Part shown: positions 1 through 5,428 of the stretch, one piece after another
How positions within the stretch are numbered: the first letter of the stretch is position 1
How the letters are laid out: each line of letters starts with the position of its first letter
DNA from: a virus
Length of the DNA: 5,428 bases
Reading direction: 5' to 3' (one strand)
IMG/VR virus record: IMGVR_UViG_3300022690_000587
Location: 1 to 5,428 of that record
Position numbers and translations under genes: made by a program
Notes under the pieces: generated by a model
Seen by the model: only the letters and a program-made list of their open reading frames with translations
What the model was told of the DNA's origin: nothing
The model's database searches: none

Positions 1-144
1 TTATGCCCGATTTTGCTCCATGCATCCGTTGCTGATGTACGTATTGGAATCGGTGTAGAGAATCCTTTATTCCAGTACTTTCTAAACCCGTTAATAACTC
101 GTAACGTGGGAGGGATTTTTCCGTAGTTGGGATCGCGGCAACAA
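1..144. repeat. Terminal direct repeat, copy 1 (identical to 5285..5428), an assembly overlap marking a circular 5284-nt genome
   Basis: Base-by-base reading shows 1..144 (ttatgcccgattttgctcc...gatcgcggcaacaa) recurs exactly at 5285..5428. The repeat lies inside one continuous minus-strand reading frame (gene A), so it is redundancy and not a biological terminal repeat. Confidence 0.95.
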
Positions 145-788
145 GATTCGGGGAGAGATTTAAGTATATGTATGACATGGAAATGATTCCTATTTGTTAA
201 TGATCCTTCCTCTACAACAGCGAAATATTTGTGATTTTCTTTACCACTTATTTTATTGAATTTATATATATAATCTCTAAATACAGTAGAACTTTTTTCC
301 CATACTTTATTATAATGTTCAGGAGCCACTGTTAATGTATTCATCATAATATAATGATTTTTATATAATGCCTCTTTTAATGCCATTTTAAGCCGCCAAT
401 TTAGCTCTGCACAACGAGCTTTTGTTCCTTTTGACTCTAACTGTTCAAGAAATACTTTTTCCAACTCAGTAACTTTTGGAGGCATTACTATCCATTCTAA
501 TTTTGTAGAATTTTCCCAATGTTTTCTTATATCAAGTAGTTGATTTAATTCTTTTTTAATGAGTTGTATTTTTATATTAGTATTTATCAAGTAGTTATTA
601 GCTAGATATTTTTGCATACGCTCTAAGCGATTAATTTCTTTTACTGCGTCTACAGGATAATAAGACTTTTCATTATAATGTAATTGTAATTGTAATTTGA
701 ATTTTTTTATACGATTTAGTATTGTTCTAGACCTCTTAACATTTGAGTCTAGACGAGTAACTATATTTAGATTTAGATTTTCTATCAT
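1..788 (-). CDS. A: Rolling-circle replication initiation protein (phiX174 gpA-like), 5' part. It runs off the left edge and continues at 5284 through the circular junction, giving 1344 nt / 447 aa if the start is at 788.
   Basis: My own reverse-complement translation is open from the ATG at 788..786 down to base 1: MIENLNLNIVTRLDSNVKRSRTILNRIKKFKLQLQLHYNEKSYYPVDAVKEINRLERMQKYLANNYLINT...YIMMNTLTVAPEHY...YFAVVEEGSLTNRNHFHVIHILKSLP...INGFRKYWNKGFSTPIPIRTSATDAWSKIGHK. RCR motif 1 is NTLTV (phiX FDTLTL). The HUH motif HFHVIH lies at 168..185 (phiX HFHAVH). The ORF track misses this ORF because it has no stop within the window. The start is uncertain: ATG 788 overlaps the H stop as ATGA, and the next in-frame ATG is at 617. 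KSYYP upstream of Met-617 resembles the phiX gpA N-terminus (RSYYP), which favours 788. Confidence 0.85.
   Translation of the reverse strand, partial: MIENLNLNIVTRLDSNVKRSRTILNRIKKFKLQLQLHYNEKSYYPVDAVKEINRLERMQKYLANNYLINTNIKIQLIKKELNQLLDIRKHWENSTKLEWIVMPPKVTELEKVFLEQLESKGTKARCAELNWRLKMALKEALYKNHYIMMNTLTVAPEHYNKVWEKSSTVFRDYIYKFNKISGKENHKYFAVVEEGSLTNRNHFHVIHILKSLPESCCRDPNYGKIPPTLRVINGFRKYWNKGFSTPIPIRTSATDAWSKIGH
513..542 (-). other. Candidate viral-strand origin of replication (gpA nick site) inside gene A
   Basis: The minus strand reads CAACTACTTGATATAAGAAAACATTGGGAA, against the phiX174 origin CAACTTGATATTAATAACACTATAGACCAC (nick after CAACTTG). ACTTGATAT is identical, the reading frame is the same as in phiX (CTT GAT AT-) and the relative position in the A protein is comparable. 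The predicted nick is between 533 and 532. Confidence 0.55.
585..596 (-). repeat. Second copy of the 12-nt nick-site-like motif AACTACTTGATA (the other copy is at 530..541)
   Basis: Exact 12-nt direct repeat, 55 nt apart, both inside gene A. This copy is in a different codon phase (AAC TAC TTG ATA). Confidence 0.6.
726..753 (-). other. Imperfect hairpin just downstream of the H stop, function unknown
   Basis: The minus strand reads TCTAGACTC-AAATGTTAA-GAGGTCTAGA. This gives a 7-bp stem plus 2 more pairs across a 1-nt bulge, with a 9-nt loop. No T-tract follows, so it is not a classical intrinsic terminator. Confidence 0.3.
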
Positions 789-1900
789 CTGAATGTTTGA
801 CCAGCTTTTGGCCCATATCTTGGCCAATTTTGTATTTTACCTTTTGGATGTGGAGAAGATGTAACTCCTTTTCTTCCAAATCCTTTTTTACCTTTTGCAA
901 GACCTCTTAGACCTAATAAGGTCATAATTGTACCTAGTATTCCTAATAATGGAGCACCTATTTTTCCAGCCGCAAGAGCCTCAGCATACTCAGATAATAC
1001 ACTCTGAATTTTTGCCTTAGCTTTAGTTTCAGGTAAACGAGCGATTTCATTATTTAACCTTGCCTTTATTAATTCACCTTCTTTTACTAAATTATTTTTT
1101 TGTTGAAATGCTACATCACCTTGAGCTTGTTTTAACCTAGCTTCATAAGATGTTAGATTACGTTGTAATGAATTTGTTATATTTAATTTTTCAGTTTCTG
1201 CACCTGTTCGTGCAGTACCTTGTTCAAGAGCTCTTATTTCAGGATGTAATTTTTGATATTTTATATTTACTTCTTCTATTTTTGGAGCAGTAGTTATACC
1301 TGCTGCCCTTTCTTGTGATCTAGCACCTGTAGCAGCAGTTTCACGAGCAGTTTTTTGTTGTATTGAAGCAGCACCACGTCCACCTTGGCCACCTGCACCA
1401 GCAGAAGATCCTAGTACTTCCCAAGGGTTAATTCTTCCTCCAAATCGTGCTTGTGTATATGCTCTATCTTGAATACCTCGTTCCATTGGACTTATTTGTT
1501 TCGGAGCGAACATTGAAGTTATTTTTGAATCTATAAATTTAGAACCTAATTTTTCTATAAAATCACCAGCGAATTGTTTACCTAATTGACCAACTTGAGA
1601 ACCAAGACGATCAGCCATTGTAGGAATAGCAGTAGGTGCCTGAACTGTAGATTTATCTACACCACCAGCAAGATCATCTTTTCGTTCCTGTTCTTCCTGC
1701 TGAGCTCTTATTATATCGGCGGCATCATTACCTTTATCGCCGCCACCTCCAAAGAGACCACCAAGTAATCCCTTACCTGCACTACCTACAAAGCTAGAAC
1801 CAACACCTAACAATGAAGATCCTAACATAGCAGATGTAATACCTAAAAAACTAAATCTCGGCTGTGAAGCCAAGAACACTTTTTTATATATAGAAAGCAT
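785..1900 (-). CDS. H: DNA pilot / minor spike protein (phiX174 gpH-like), 371 aa
   Basis: It is the last gene in the F-G-H order. It has a Gly-rich hydrophobic N-terminus (GLLGGLFGGGGDKG versus phiX SKLFGGGQK). INPWEVLGSSAGAGG resembles phiX LNAWERAGADASSAG. A long Q/K/E/A-rich region looks like a coiled coil. No SD is evident before ATG 1900. The internal ATG at 1828 (MLGSSLLGVG...) aligns better with the phiX H N-terminus and is an alternative start. Confidence 0.8.
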   Translation of the reverse strand: MLSIYKKVFLASQPRFSFLGITSAMLGSSLLGVGSSFVGSAGKGLLGGLFGGGGDKGNDAADIIRAQQEEQERKDDLAGGVDKSTVQAPTAIPTMADRLGSQVGQLGKQFAGDFIEKLGSKFIDSKITSMFAPKQISPMERGIQDRAYTQARFGGRINPWEVLGSSAGAGGQGGRGAASIQQKTARETAATGARSQERAAGITTAPKIEEVNIKYQKLHPEIRALEQGTARTGAETEKLNITNSLQRNLTSYEARLKQAQGDVAFQQKNNLVKEGELIKARLNNEIARLPETKAKAKIQSVLSEYAEALAAGKIGAPLLGILGTIMTLLGLRGLAKGKKGFGRKGVTSSPHPKGKIQNWPRYGPKAGQTFR

Positions 1901-1948
1901 ATATTATTGAACTTATACCAATTATTATTAATGATATATTTAATACTT

Positions 1949-2569
1949 TCATCGTGCTGGATCAAATGTTATTAGATCCTCACCATACTTATGAAATGCA
2001 ATATTAGCTCTTAATTGTGCCATTATCGCATCAGAACCGTCAATATTTCTAAAGAACCAGAATGCAGCAATATCAAAGAATGTTGAAGGTGCTGAACCAC
2101 CATCTAATTGTGTAGATATAAAACTTGTATTACAAACATAATGATTTATTCCGCCACCATTCATGGCTACTTGTAACGGTAAAACAATAGGATTAGGAAC
2201 ATCAATATTTGCAGTAGCACTAGGAGCAGCCGCAAGACGACCTACAACCATATCAACAAGTAAATCTTTATCAGAATGGAACGTTACGGAAGCGGCTACA
2301 GAATACATATATTGATGCATTTCTTCTTCACCACCAGATAATTGAACACCAAAACCAGTTTGGCGTTGACTACTAAGAAATATTGAAGTATTACTAAAAC
2401 ATACATGTTCGCCTGCAAAATCAACACCAGATACTGTGTTAAGACTATACATGCCATATGAAGTAGTACTAACTAGATCAACAAGATCAAAGTCAGTCTT
2501 AGCATCAACTATTAATGGTTTATTATAATTTCCTAATTGCCAAGGGCCAATTCTATTTGGACGATACAT
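1949..2569 (-). CDS. Putative major spike protein (gpG position), 206 aa, assigned by synteny only
   Basis: The ORF lies between F and H, as G does in phiX174. It has a strong RBS (TAAAGGAAAATTATG) nearly identical to that of F. I see no convincing similarity to phiX174 gpG (175 aa) by eye. Confidence 0.55.
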   Translation of the reverse strand: MYRPNRIGPWQLGNYNKPLIVDAKTDFDLVDLVSTTSYGMYSLNTVSGVDFAGEHVCFSNTSIFLSSQRQTGFGVQLSGGEEEMHQYMYSVAASVTFHSDKDLLVDMVVGRLAAAPSATANIDVPNPIVLPLQVAMNGGGINHYVCNTSFISTQLDGGSAPSTFFDIAAFWFFRNIDGSDAIMAQLRANIAFHKYGEDLITFDPAR

Positions 2570-2574
2570 AATTT

Positions 2575-2579
2575 TCCTT
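2575..2579 (-). promoter_or_regulatory. Shine-Dalgarno site for the G-position gene, overlapping the F stop codon
   Basis: The minus strand reads CTTAAAGGAAAATT-ATG, and the TAA of F is part of the motif. Confidence 0.6.
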
Positions 2580-3898
2580 TAAGATTTGCGTTTAGTACCA
2601 GCAAAGATACTTGCTTTTGAATTTGGATAATGACGAATAGCTTCAACTTGAATTGACGCTTGCGCTTGCCAATGAGCTAAAGAAGTAGTTTGGAATATAG
2701 AATCATAATCAGCACCTGAATGATATATTGCTTTTGTATGAGTATTTAATACACCAGGCGATAAAAATGGAAATCCTTGTAAAGATTCATAATCGAAATG
2801 CACAGCATTTGGTTGATGTCTCCATTCTTCACCGAATGGTATTTCACCAAGAGTTGTAGCACCTGCAGGTGATGTATGCCAATCATTTAGATTTGTAGAC
2901 GCTGGAGCAATAGCTGAATCCACATCATAATCAGCAGCAAAGTTTGCAAAGGTTTTAACACCTTTAGCTTGACGAATTTGTTCTCTAGATCCAATAGTTG
3001 GAAACCTTACAAGAACCATTAACCATACAGCACCATGCTCGGGAAAGAACTTACGTCTAAACCCGAATTGCTGATTACCAAGGGACTTACCGGAGAACGT
3101 CCCTAAAGAGGCGTCTCCTGTCCCGTTTACGTCATATCCACTAAGGGGCACGGACTGACGCATAACTAGCTGAGGACGCTCATCAGCGTCTATATTTACA
3201 CTAGAACCATATGATGTACGCATTACATCGTTATAACGATTTGCAAAGCGATCTCGTTCTATTTCAGAACGGTAAGACATTTTTGTTTGTTCATAATCAA
3301 TAATATCAAGAACAGTAACAGCAGCTACCTGACGATCAGCAGCAACTAGATCAGATACAATACCTGTATTCCACGGTTTTTTAAGTCTACAACATGAATA
3401 CCCATAGAATTTTTGATTCATACCACCATCTATACGTGAGTTAGCAGCACTATGACCTGTAGGAAAACCTACATTTACATAAGCATCCTGAATTTCAGGA
3501 GTTAATTTTAAGAATCTAAAATACCGATTCCAAATACGGATATATCCAGTAGACAACCATGAAGATTGAGCAGCTGAAGCAGCTTCTAATACTTGACCTA
3601 AATATGATGTCCCTATAGGAGCAGTAGTCCCTAAAGATACAGCAGAATCAGGACCTGCTAATAACATTGTTTCCCAGTCATCCCCAAATATATGACGATG
3701 AGGAACATAGAAAGCGAAATAATCTACCTGAGCATCAACAGTTAGGGATCTCCTCAACGGAGATAAACGCATAAGGTTTGTCATTTGAACTGTTATAGAG
3801 TCCCCTCCGATAACAGGTATAACCGACAAAGTCTGCAACTGTCCAATTCGTCCGTCCATGAACGAATAATGGCCTAAATTGAACTTTTCGCGCTGCAT
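2579..3898 (-). CDS. F: Major capsid protein (phiX174 gpF-like), 439 aa
   Basis: Motifs shared with phiX174 F as recalled are PVIGGDS (PVIAGDS), RLSPLRR, FYVPHRH, RPQLVMR (RPLLVMR), SGYDVNGTGDASLGTFSG (SGYDVDGTDQTSLGQFSG), FFPEHG (FVPEHG), LVRFP and GFPF. The length is similar (439 versus 426 aa). The SD AAGGA lies 7 nt upstream of the ATG. Confidence 0.95.
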   Translation of the reverse strand: MQREKFNLGHYSFMDGRIGQLQTLSVIPVIGGDSITVQMTNLMRLSPLRRSLTVDAQVDYFAFYVPHRHIFGDDWETMLLAGPDSAVSLGTTAPIGTSYLGQVLEAASAAQSSWLSTGYIRIWNRYFRFLKLTPEIQDAYVNVGFPTGHSAANSRIDGGMNQKFYGYSCCRLKKPWNTGIVSDLVAADRQVAAVTVLDIIDYEQTKMSYRSEIERDRFANRYNDVMRTSYGSSVNIDADERPQLVMRQSVPLSGYDVNGTGDASLGTFSGKSLGNQQFGFRRKFFPEHGAVWLMVLVRFPTIGSREQIRQAKGVKTFANFAADYDVDSAIAPASTNLNDWHTSPAGATTLGEIPFGEEWRHQPNAVHFDYESLQGFPFLSPGVLNTHTKAIYHSGADYDSIFQTTSLAHWQAQASIQVEAIRHYPNSKASIFAGTKRKS

Positions 3899-3904
3899 AA
3901 TTTT

Positions 3905-3909
3905 TCCTT
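3905..3909 (-). promoter_or_regulatory. Shine-Dalgarno site for F
   Basis: The minus strand reads AAAAGGAAAAATT-ATG. It is nearly the same as the G initiation region. Confidence 0.6.
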
Positions 3910-3919
3910 TTAATATTCA

Positions 3920-4051
3920 TTAGAATACGGTTCCACCGATATAATACTTTCCACCTGTTTTACGTCTACGTGGATTAGGCTTAGCCATTGTAGAACGCCT
4001 ACCTCTTACTTTACTTTTTCGCCCGTACGATTGACGTCGATTCCTTGGCAT
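3920..4051 (-). CDS. J: Small basic DNA-binding/packaging protein (phiX174 gpJ-like). The certain core is 3920..3988 (22 aa); the preferred 43-aa form starts at 4051.
   Basis: It is not in the ORF track because it is under 60 aa. My translation is MPRNRRQSYGRKSKVRGRRSTMAKPNPRRRKTGGKYYIGGTVF*. The C-terminal KYYIGGTVF matches the conserved J C-terminus (phiX RLWYVGGQQF, G4 ...WYVGGTQY). It has 15 Arg/Lys in 43 aa and sits between D and F. GGGAG lies 9 nt upstream of ATG 4051. Alternative starts are ATG 3988 (AGAGGT 12 nt upstream) and ATG 4087 (55 aa). Confidence 0.8.
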   Translation of the reverse strand: MPRNRRQSYGRKSKVRGRRSTMAKPNPRRRKTGGKYYIGGTVF

Positions 4052-4547
4052 TTTCAATATCTCCCATAACAGAGTTAATCGATCCATTTACACGTTGCTC
4101 AAATTGAGCACGTATAGCTGGTAAATCTATATCATTTGATAACTGTAAACATAAAGAAAATAATTGTTGTGAAGTTATAACTCCACCTAATTGTGCACTA
4201 GCATTTGATGGATTACCTAAGCTTTCTGATGTAAATCCACCTTCCATCCATCGACAAGCTACTAATATATTTGATGGGTGGACGAACATAATAATAGCTG
4301 CAGCAACATATTCAGCAGGAGTTTCTATCCGGGGTAAACCTAACGCATCAGTAGTACCATGCATTAATACCTCAAGCACCCGGGTAACTTGACCACGTTC
4401 GACATTTTGCCATGAAAAATCTTGTTGAACTAATTTTAAATCTTCAGGAAGCAGGTTTAATGAAGCTAATGATCCGTAAGCTGCACCCCTTGATAAAGTG
4501 AACATAGCACCTTTTATTACAGATAACTGAGCATTTATATAATTCAT
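4011..4547 (-). CDS. D: External scaffolding protein (phiX174 gpD-like), 178 aa
   Basis: HGTTDALGLPRIETPAEYVAAAIIMFVHPSNILVACRWMEGGFTSE aligns with phiX D YGTLDFVGYPRFPAPVEFIAAVIAYYVHPVNIQTACLIMEGAEFTE. AGGAG lies 8 nt upstream of the ATG. The ATG overlaps the upstream gene's TGA as ATGA, the same junction as phiX C/D. Confidence 0.9.
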   Translation of the reverse strand: MNYINAQLSVIKGAMFTLSRGAAYGSLASLNLLPEDLKLVQQDFSWQNVERGQVTRVLEVLMHGTTDALGLPRIETPAEYVAAAIIMFVHPSNILVACRWMEGGFTSESLGNPSNASAQLGGVITSQQLFSLCLQLSNDIDLPAIRAQFEQRVNGSINSVMGDIENAKESTSIVRAKK

Positions 4548-4777
4548 TTATTAAGCTCCTTTTTTACATCTACTAATTGAGATAATGCATTATTTATTAC
4601 ATTTTCCAGATAATTTTTATTATATTCTGTTATAAGCATTTTTGAATGATTTGATAATTTTATAATTACATTTAACTCTGTTATTACTGACTGAATTTGA
4701 GTTATTGAATTTGATGATAATAATTTAATCAATACGGTGTGCCCTTTAATTGCGTATTGGAAGGTATAATCTGACAC
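4544..4777 (-). CDS. Small protein in the gpC position (candidate ssDNA-synthesis/packaging switch protein), assigned by synteny only
   Basis: The ORF bridges the end of A and the start of D, as phiX C does, and its stop overlaps the D start (ATGA). The track's start at 4777 is a GTG. An alternative TTG at 4732..4730 overlaps the A stop (TTGA), has AAAGGG 9 nt upstream and would give 62 aa. I see no visible similarity to phiX C. The segment is about 19% GC. Confidence 0.5.
   Translation of the reverse strand: MSDYTFQYAIKGHTVLIKLLSSNSITQIQSVITELNVIIKLSNHSKMLITEYNKNYLENVINNALSQLVDVKKELNK
4556..4560 (-). promoter_or_regulatory. Shine-Dalgarno site for D
   Basis: The minus strand reads AAAAAGGAGCTTAATAA-ATG. 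Confidence 0.6.
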
Positions 4778-5428
4778 GTTCCCAATACACTGTCAACAGT
4801 TATATCTAATATTCTCTGTATTTCAGAAATTACCGTGTTCTGTGATTTCTGAATCGGTATAGATCCAATGTTCTGCGATTGATACATCATCGGAGGAAAG
4901 GTCTTGATCCGCAAGCGCTGCATTATAGAAGGTTGAGCCTTTAGGGTCATAAGTTTCGAACTCTTTTTGTTGTTCTCTAACTTCATCAATATTTTTCGGT
5001 GGGCTTGGTTGATTAATAACATCGGTGGTACGACGTTGTTGTATATTACTAATACTTGCATTTTGGCTATTTGTATCAACTGATTTAATTGCATCTGATT
5101 CAATTGGTTGACCATCTTTTCTAGAACTGTCATCCCCAACTTGTGTGATTGTCTTATTCTCCATTTTTTACTCTCCTTTTGATTCATAGATTTTGTTACG
5201 TATTTTGAGACATAGTTAGCAACTTTATCTGCATTTCCCGAAGGGATCGGATTGATTGTATTTCCGACTTGAACGGAAGGCCACTTATGCCCGATTTTGC
5301 TCCATGCATCCGTTGCTGATGTACGTATTGGAATCGGTGTAGAGAATCCTTTATTCCAGTACTTTCTAAACCCGTTAATAACTCGTAACGTGGGAGGGAT
5401 TTTTCCGTAGTTGGGATCGCGGCAACAA
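4729..5428 (-). CDS. A: Rolling-circle replication initiation protein (gpA-like), 3' part. 5285..5428 duplicates 1..144, and the 152-aa track ORF 4729..5187 is simply its tail.
   Basis: The frame is open from 5428 down to the TGA at 4731..4729: ...HKWPSVQVGNTINPIPSGNADKVANYVSKYVTKSMNQKESKKWRIRQSHKLGMTVLEKM... The double-tyrosine catalytic motif YVSKYVTK lies at 5191..5214 (phiX YVAKYVNK). WRIRQSHKLGM resembles phiX FRIRMSRNFGM. The total of 788+556 nt is divisible by 3 across the junction. Confidence 0.9.
   Translation of the reverse strand, partial: CCRDPNYGKIPPTLRVINGFRKYWNKGFSTPIPIRTSATDAWSKIGHKWPSVQVGNTINPIPSGNADKVANYVSKYVTKSMNQKESKKWRIRQSHKLGMTVLEKMVNQLNQMQLNQLIQIAKMQVLVIYNNVVPPMLLINQAHRKILMKLENNKKSSKLMTLKAQPSIMQRLRIKTFPPMMYQSQNIGSIPIQKSQNTVISEIQRILDITVDSVLGTCQIIPSNTQLKGTPY
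4823..5164 (-). CDS. B: Internal scaffolding protein (phiX174 gpB-like), 113 aa, nested out of frame inside gene A
   Basis: It is embedded in the 3' part of A in another frame, as in phiX. It has a strong RBS (AAAAGGAGAGTAAAAAATG). The polypeptide is acidic and hydrophilic, and the N-terminus MENKTITQ resembles phiX MEQLTKNQ. The C-terminus AEHWIYTDSEITEHGNF resembles the aromatic coat-binding tail of phiX B (AEFYRFHDAEVNTFGYF). Confidence 0.8.
   Translation of the reverse strand: MENKTITQVGDDSSRKDGQPIESDAIKSVDTNSQNASISNIQQRRTTDVINQPSPPKNIDEVREQQKEFETYDPKGSTFYNAALADQDLSSDDVSIAEHWIYTDSEITEHGNF
5173..5178 (-). promoter_or_regulatory. Shine-Dalgarno site for B, encoded within the A reading frame
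   Basis: The minus strand reads CAAAAGGAGAGTAAAAA-ATG. Confidence 0.6.
5285..5428. repeat. Terminal direct repeat, copy 2 (identical to 1..144)
   Basis: Same 144 nt as 1..144. The offset of 5284 gives the unit genome length. Confidence 0.95.

Follow-up and report, generated by a model that had tools for sequence, protein, structure and literature searches.

The window studied here comprises positions 1-5,428 of IMG/VR virus record IMGVR_UViG_3300022690_000587, a stretch of 5,428 nucleotides (nt). Its minus strand carries all the long open reading frames (ORFs). On this strand, the circle reads A(B)-C-D-J-F-G-H, the gene order of phage phiX174, with A running across the window ends. An earlier note, made from the letters of the window, had described this full gene order and proposed a complete but deeply diverged microvirus of phiX174 architecture. 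According to the present analysis, the window is very probably a complete, circular, lytic-type phiX174-like microvirus that belongs to 'Suborder I/Family 1', lies outside Bullavirinae and represents a low-GC lineage known from metagenomes only.

Genome unit and genes shared with phiX174

Bases 1-144 of the window are identical to bases 5285-5428. This exact direct repeat of 144 nt, which has no strand, is the terminal redundancy of a circular assembly, and the genome unit is a circle of 5,284 nt (1-5284). Run SRR7467839 was assembled independently by Logan. The resulting sequence matches at 100% identity and also circularizes into a 5,284-nt unit, with an overlap of another length. Because the two assemblies agree on this unit, the circle is real and is not a chimera. 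The genome is thus complete, as the earlier note had supposed.

The strand that is packaged and that encodes the genes corresponds to the window read as its reverse complement. J and F are separated by 21 nt, F and G by 9 nt and G and H by 48 nt, and H overlaps A without any gap. Start and stop codons overlap at the H/A (785-788, ATGA), A/C (4729-4732, TTGA) and C/D (4544-4547, ATGA) junctions. The genome is markedly tighter than that of phiX174, with no obvious space for intergenic hairpins of the phiX174 and G4 type. TGA is the stop codon of A, B, G and H, and Shine-Dalgarno motifs are conserved upstream of B, D, J, F and G. A promoter scan yielded 22 sites for 22.3 expected, which is chance level, and a scan of the genome for Rfam families and tRNAs found none. 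The GC content of the window is 35.8%, versus 44.3% in phiX174, 46.0% in G4, 45.2% in alpha3 and 41.3% in Vibrio phage vB_VpaM_PG19 (hereafter PG19). The AT-richness noticed at first sight, relative to the classical phages, is therefore genuine.

Five relatives form, together with the window, a six-genome lineage. They are contigs L010, L011, L012, L018 (ENA ERZ28763718 ctg35231) and L019, and they come from other samples. All five are syntenic with the window, measure 5.26-5.36 kb, have GC contents of 36-40%, encode a B protein of 113 amino acids (aa) and contain the same origin core. No annotation or describing paper was found for these five closest contigs. Their existence bears on the idea that the window might be a chimera created during assembly or a piece of an integrated prophage. 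Such an idea could be entertained because the phage is known from metagenome assemblies only and because some Family 1 members are Klebsiella prophages (PMC9239249). However, neither origin would readily account for an identical 5,284-nt circle in two independent assemblies or for five syntenic relatives of similar size in other samples. An integrase is absent from the window, as is any sequence foreign to the phage. When 185,579 species-representative genomes of bacteria and archaea were scanned twice, no relative turned up. L018 and L019, the longer contigs with relatives on them, consist of head-to-tail concatemers and do not represent host flanks or prophages. We regard a chimera or a prophage fragment as extremely improbable.

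Gene A encodes a rolling-circle initiator of 447 aa. Its 5' part occupies positions 1-788 on the minus strand. The ATG (788-786) overlaps the H stop codon, and the gene continues at 5284 with its 3' part (4729-5284, minus strand), composed of the C-terminal 185 codons and the stop codon, in the same open frame across the circle junction. The protein matches PHROG 713 'DNA replication initiation' (E 3.7e-60) and Pfam PF23343, a weak model (E 2e-7). Comparison with the A proteins of phiX174, G4 and alpha3 by tblastn gives E values of 1e-23 to 1e-25. Motifs TLTV, HFHVIH (the HUH motif) and YVSKYVTK, the last with two tyrosines, align with those of the same three A proteins. Orthologues of 448-455 aa are found in all five relatives, and A is 43-44% identical across the six-genome set. 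Identity is 28-31% with the A proteins of pequenoviruses and 22-24% with those of phiX174, G4, alpha3 and PG19.

Gene B (internal scaffolding protein, 113 aa; 4823-5164, minus strand) is overprinted in the +2 frame of A. B is a real gene because its ORF is exactly 113 aa long in six of six genomes, because its stop-free run (113-117 codons) was reached by none of 2000 synonymous shuffles of A in each of these genomes, and because AAGGAG or GGAG precedes its ATG in all six. Synonymous constraint in A is elevated at codons 339-415, where B overlaps. Profiles built from the window and its five relatives were compared, using hhalign, with those of phiX174, G4, alpha3, PG19 and Pectobacterium phage Mimer. 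In this comparison the C-terminal 32 residues of B match Bullavirinae B (probability 94.7%, E 5.7e-8).

Gene D (external scaffolding protein, 178 aa; 4011-4547, minus strand) is recognized by Pfam PF02925 gpD (E 2.8e-14) and by PHROG 1386 (E 1.2e-33). Its profile matches Bullavirinae D (hhalign 99%, E 2.8e-18), tblastn returns annotated D genes, and identity to pequenovirus D reaches 32-43% over the tblastn segments. Gene J (43 aa; 3920-4051, minus strand), which encodes a small basic DNA-binding and packaging protein, overlaps the last 13 codons of D. Synonymous constraint is elevated at this 3' end of D. J contains 15 lysine and arginine residues and zero acidic residues, with an isoelectric point of 12. 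L010 and L011 have the J start at the conserved position, and GGAG lies upstream of it. The C-terminus, KYYIGGTVF, resembles RLWYVGGQQF of phiX174 J (hhalign 79%, E 1.6e-5), and alpha3 J is matched by tblastn with an E value of 0.012.

Gene F (major capsid protein, 439 aa; 2579-3898, minus strand) matches Pfam PF02305 Phage_F (E 1e-50) and finds full-length tblastn matches in 787 microvirus records. It is 47.5% identical to phiX174 F over the first 80 residues and 32% overall. The by-eye estimate of about one half over the N-terminal part was thus accurate. Within F (3471-3508, minus strand; around codons 131-143), we also observed 38 consecutive nt that do not vary at all between the window, L010, L011 and L012, despite overall nucleotide identities of 70-84%. 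This run includes the palindrome TCCTGAATTTCAGGA (3486-3500 on the plus strand) and is not conserved in L018 and L019. It may be a cis-element, involved in complementary-strand priming or RNA structure, or it may be due to chance.

Gene G (major spike protein, 206 aa; 1949-2569, minus strand) was assigned by its predicted fold and by homology to the G-position proteins of pequenoviruses (hhalign 99.8%). By sequence, its resemblance to Bullavirinae G is weak (hhalign probability 34%), and in this sense the protein is unrecognisable, as the earlier note had stated. The statement does not extend to its fold. The AlphaFold2 model has a mean predicted local distance difference test score (pLDDT) of 83.2. 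Search of the PDB with this model using Foldseek gave Bullavirinae G spikes as the top four matches, with a probability of 1.00 and template modelling (TM) scores of 0.49-0.64. These matches are the spikes of Salmonella phage PJNS002, phiX174 (2bpa_2), PJNS001 and alpha3 (1m06_G). Gene H (DNA pilot or minor spike protein, 371 aa; 785-1900, minus strand) follows G. The H profile of the lineage matches Bullavirinae H (hhalign 97.4%, E 1.3e-11), with residues 135-237 aligned to residues 107-225 of phiX174 H. H of alpha3 and PG19 give weak tblastn matches. Sequence searches of G and H against the PDB returned no matches.

Taken together, the Pfam and PHROG assignments, the tblastn matches, the profile comparisons and, for G, the predicted structure identify A, B, D, J, F, G and H as homologues of phiX174 proteins. 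The hallmarks of the phiX174 group that had been singled out from the letters, an external scaffold D, a tiny basic J and a separate G, are thereby recovered by Pfam, by composition and by predicted fold, respectively.

G and H are the most divergent proteins among the five relatives (30-47% and 29-66% identity). As compared with L010, L011 and L012, G is 35-47% and H 29-66% identical while F is 81-97% identical. Such a pattern is expected when host-recognition proteins are subject to diversifying pressure or are swapped through recombination.

Predicted origin core within gene A and proposed life cycle

A predicted viral-strand origin core, AACTACTTGATAAA, is located at positions 583-596 on the minus strand, in the 5' third of A. 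It contains the decamer CTACTTGATA (594-585), one base away from the decamer CAACTTGATA of phiX174, G4 and alpha3. CTACTTGATA is identical to the decamer that opens a near-perfect phiX-type 30-mer in gene A of PG19, and the canonical 30-mer is found at the corresponding place in phiX174, G4 and alpha3. In the whole-genome alignment of the six genomes, just one stretch of at least 9 nt, ACTTGATAAA (592-583), shows no variation. It lies within gene A and includes the core of the phiX174 origin nick site. Synonymous-site constraint of A is highest at codons 51-85, the region of the origin core. The element at 583-596 is predicted to be the origin core because of this invariant run, of the close match of the decamer to those of phiX174 and PG19, and of the peak of synonymous constraint. 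The phiX174 decamer is established as the site recognized and cleaved by protein A, and both the origin and the nick assignments build on this. By analogy, a phiX-type nick is predicted between G588 and A587 (ACTTG|ATA).

The complete phiX174 origin was not found: 20-mer and 15-mer searches gave no meaningful match in the window. A match to the phiX174 origin with three mismatches inside F is at chance level and was discarded.

The decamer CTACTTGATA occurs twice on the coding strand, at 594-585 and at 539-530, both in the 5' third of A and in different reading frames. The second occurrence belongs to an exact second copy of the 12-mer AACTACTTGATA (530-541, minus strand), 55 nt downstream of the first and in another codon phase of A. 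This second copy is present in the window and in its two closest relatives, L011 and L012. It is disrupted in L010 and absent in L018 and L019. Two nick cores this close together should disturb the termination of rolling-circle replication, unless the choice between them is made by the flanking sequence.

The genes, their homologies, the catalytic motifs, the B overprint and the conserved origin-like core are shown by the present analysis. From phiX174 homology we infer the corresponding biochemical steps. Protein A would act as an HUH endonuclease with two catalytic tyrosines, nicking the viral strand at ACTTG|ATA within its own gene and thereby starting rolling-circle replication. Pentamers of F and pentamers of G would assemble into a procapsid. 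In this procapsid, the internal scaffold B would dock on F via its C-terminus and D would form the external scaffold. The basic J protein would enter together with the single-stranded DNA, and H would pilot the DNA into the next cell.

Placement among phiX174-like phages

Whole-genome blastn against 50,697 phage records gave no match. F of the window is 97% and 92% identical to those of IMGVR_UViG_3300023223_000106 and IMGVR_UViG_3300023223_000551, 81% identical to that of NCBI JACGJW010000900.1, and 55% and 54% identical to those of ENA ERZ28763718 ctg35231 and NCBI JACGIT010003732.1. A grade of further contigs, to which L018 and L019 belong, has F identities of 54-56%. The nearest named F proteins are those of Eel River basin pequenovirus KP087947 (42.5% by tblastn) and then of a Ciona gut microvirus (39.9%). 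Identity of F to phiX174, G4 and alpha3 is 32-33%, or 32-35% if PG19 is included.

Bootstrapped neighbour-joining trees were calculated for F, A and A+F, with a gokushovirus root. The six-genome lineage is monophyletic in 85-89% of the bootstraps. The cultured clade formed by phiX174, G4, alpha3 and PG19 receives 99-100% support, and the window groups with it in 0-3%. These values, together with the low identities of F (32-35%) and A (22-24%), fit the view of a distant relative of the classical clade, as first proposed. No identity of F or A above 80% to a described Bullavirinae species was found, nor was a placement within the phiX, G4 or alpha3 genera.

Pequenoviruses (Bryson 2015) have been put forward as a sister clade of Bullavirinae with an external scaffold (cited in PMC6116155). 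The larger division, 'Suborder I/Family 1' (Kirchberger 2022), groups Bullavirinae, Klebsiella prophages and metagenome-assembled pequenovirus genomes, and has spike and external scaffolding proteins as hallmarks (PMC9239249). In 2022 the division counted about 60 known genomes, out of roughly 13,000 microviruses (PMC9865509).

The window shows the features of Microviridae (order Petitvirales), with an F/VP1-family single-jelly-roll capsid protein (Pfam PF02305), and with an HUH initiator of the A/VP4 type encoded on a small circle of 5,284 nt, within the class of about 4-6.5 kb. Both features of Family 1, D and a separate spike G, are present. Its authors assign genomes to the division with a protein-sharing network pipeline, MOP-UP, and quote a threshold of 30% amino-acid identity (AAI) (PMC9239249). 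The F and A identities of the window to Family 1 members, 22-45%, fall on either side of it.

The window shares the order A(B)-C-D-J-F-G-H with phiX174, G4, alpha3, PG19 and Mimer. The likeness to Bullavirinae, PG19 and Mimer extends to A with its HUH motif and two tyrosines, the C-terminus of B, D, the C-terminus of J, F, the fold of G, and H. As in phiX174, the A stop codon overlaps the C start and an origin-like nick core lies inside A. One could therefore see in the window a divergent member of the ICTV subfamily Bullavirinae proper (genera Sinsheimervirus, Gequatrovirus and Alphatrevirus), given the common gene order, the presence of D, G, J, B and H, and the phiX-like origin core. We consider this very unlikely. 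Unlike these phages, the window has no E overprinted in D, no K and no homologous C, and its GC content is 35.8% instead of 41-46%, or about 9 points lower. Its F and A proteins are only 32-33% and 22-24% identical, and neither places it in the cultured clade, which has 99-100% support and takes in the window in 0-3% of the bootstraps. Also, unlike phiX174, the window keeps only the first 10 nt of the 30-nt origin.

The Eel River basin pequenoviruses (KP087947, KP087943 and NC_026665) and the Ciona gut microvirus SD_SC_1 (MH572352) have the same gene order as the window, a D gene and a G-position spike. Like the window lineage, they are all known from metagenomes only. Their F proteins are 40-42.5% identical to that of the window by tblastn, and 41-45% identical in trimmed alignment columns. 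Their genomes measure 5,090-6,438 nt, as compared with 5,284 nt and almost no intergenic DNA in the window. One Eel River pequenovirus has a GC content of 30.7% and is thus more AT-rich than the window, so that low GC is not new for the group. For these reasons, the earlier note overstated the novelty of the phage: the pequenovirus sister group was already described, public contigs have F identities of 81-97%, and one pequenovirus has the 30.7% GC just mentioned.

Whether the window lineage is part of the pequenovirus clade itself, forming a single clade with the genomes from the Eel River basin and Ciona, is a closer question. Pequenoviruses provide the best named matches (F 41-45%, A 28-31%, D 32-43%), the G-position proteins are homologous (hhalign 99.8%), and the A tree joins the two groups in 67% of the bootstraps. 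This joining drops to 16% with F and 32% with A+F. In the F and A+F trees, pequenoviruses are instead joined to Bullavirinae (42-66%) and the window lineage stays outside. The pequenovirus set is itself monophyletic in just 19-66% of the bootstraps. In addition, the C-position ORFs are not homologous, and neither the Eel River nor the Ciona A genes yielded the CTACTTGATA core. Membership in the pequenovirus clade thus falls somewhat short of an even chance in our estimation.

A phiX174-like microvirus of Family 1, outside Bullavirinae, remains our preferred reading, and several points weigh against it. The phage is known here from its genome sequence alone. Protein A fails the classical Pfam model Phage_GPA and passes PF23343 weakly. 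The origin assignment uses a core of 8-10 nt, outside which the phiX174 30-mer shows no conservation. By sequence, profiles or structure, the C-position protein has no homology to phiX174 C. A lysis gene is not assignable, as D contains no E-like ORF and the hydrophobic ORFs of the +1 frame lack a conserved position. Finally, the neighbour-joining trees disagree on the order of the window lineage, the Eel River/Ciona genomes and the cultured clade. Within the preferred reading, the window is a further, unannotated member of a known but rare phiX-like division, and may form a distinct sublineage.

phiX174-like phages are a classic model system, and a distant complete relative helps to sort the old parts of the design from the lineage-specific ones. 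Among the old parts are the catalytic motifs of A, the nick core ACTTGATA, two features of B (its F-binding tail and its overprinting in A), D, the hydrophobic tail of J, the fold of G and the H core. Lineage-specific inventions are E, K and C as well as the long intergenic regions. The genome can serve studies of gene overprinting and scaffold evolution, and leaves current understanding unchanged. Its most useful by-products are the conserved nick-site core and the non-homologous C-position gene.

C-position gene, lysis and host

The C-position gene (62 aa; 4544-4732, minus strand) starts with a TTG that overlaps the A stop codon, and its own stop overlaps the D start. The ORF is conserved in the six-genome lineage; in L012 it is an ATG that overlaps the A stop. 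Profile comparison with Bullavirinae C found no homology (hhalign 0.05%), and comparison with the same-position ORFs of pequenoviruses and PG19, also by hhalign, found no similarity. A word-indexed sequence search yielded no homologue, and a scan of 1.84 billion representatives yielded 7 sequence relatives. The AlphaFold model is a two-helix hairpin (pLDDT 90.6), for which a BFVD search returned no significant structural neighbour. The protein had been called unrecognisable from the letters, and it is so by each of these approaches. From its position, it would have a role equivalent to that of phiX174 C.

Besides the overlaps with J and C, D contains no same-strand ORF of at least 25 aa, and thus no E-like one. 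No K-like ORF spans the A/C junction. Hydrophobic ORFs in the +1 frame, tried as candidate lysis genes, are common to all six genomes and were rejected, their positions not being conserved. For the one located in F, a stop codon breaks the frame in the window, and synonymous constraint is absent. In L018, a free-standing ORF of 55 aa with a transmembrane segment is located between J and F (4571-4738 of that contig) and has no counterpart in the window. It is plausibly a lysis gene.

A further ORF of 88 codons, ORF88, lies in the +1 frame of A on the minus strand (1-178 and 5196-5284), with its ATG within the codons of the HUH motif. Its open run of 94 codons in the window was reached by 2 of 2000 synonymous shuffles; for the window and its close relatives L011 and L012 the count is 2-5 of 2000. 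In L010 the ORF has 78 codons (P about 0.03), and L018 and L019 have no counterpart. Synonymous-site constraint in A was not found in the ORF88 region, and ORF88 evolves faster than A. It is possibly a young overprinted gene. Along with a 53-aa ORF in the +1 frame of G (2457-2296) and the C-position protein, it is a candidate for the lysis gene.

The earlier note had proposed a search for prophages as a route to the host. The two scans of 185,579 species-representative genomes found no relative. A low-GC host, also proposed there, is plausible. The hints are the low GC of the lineage, the TGA stops and the conserved Shine-Dalgarno motifs. With TGA read as a stop, a code-4 organism does not qualify as host. 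The Shine-Dalgarno motifs argue against hosts that largely lack them, such as Bacteroidota. By analogy with their homologues, G and H suggest a Gram-negative host.

A broader synthesis can be proposed tentatively, and we think it possible without favouring it. The window would represent a third deep, subfamily-level phiX-like lineage, equidistant from Bullavirinae and the Eel River pequenoviruses. It would infect a low-GC, Shine-Dalgarno-using, non-enterobacterial Gram-negative host. C would have been replaced by the unrelated two-helix protein, lysis would proceed without an E-type gene, possibly via a young overprint such as ORF88, and the ancestral ACTTG|ATA nick site would have been retained.

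Small ORFs between A and D were also noticed in the phages used for comparison. In PG19, an unannotated ORF of 80 aa (1525-1767, plus strand) contains …DEQFQNMLRNTFIRWAKIE… and resembles, by eye, protein C of phiX174 and G4; the published description of PG19 gives gpC as absent. In two Eel River basin pequenoviruses, contigs L001 (1205-1447) and L004 (1558-1845), the small ORFs at this place have N-termini resembling signal peptides with a lipobox (…LSAC and …LSGC). This suggests that they encode lipoproteins, possibly linked to lysis or superinfection.

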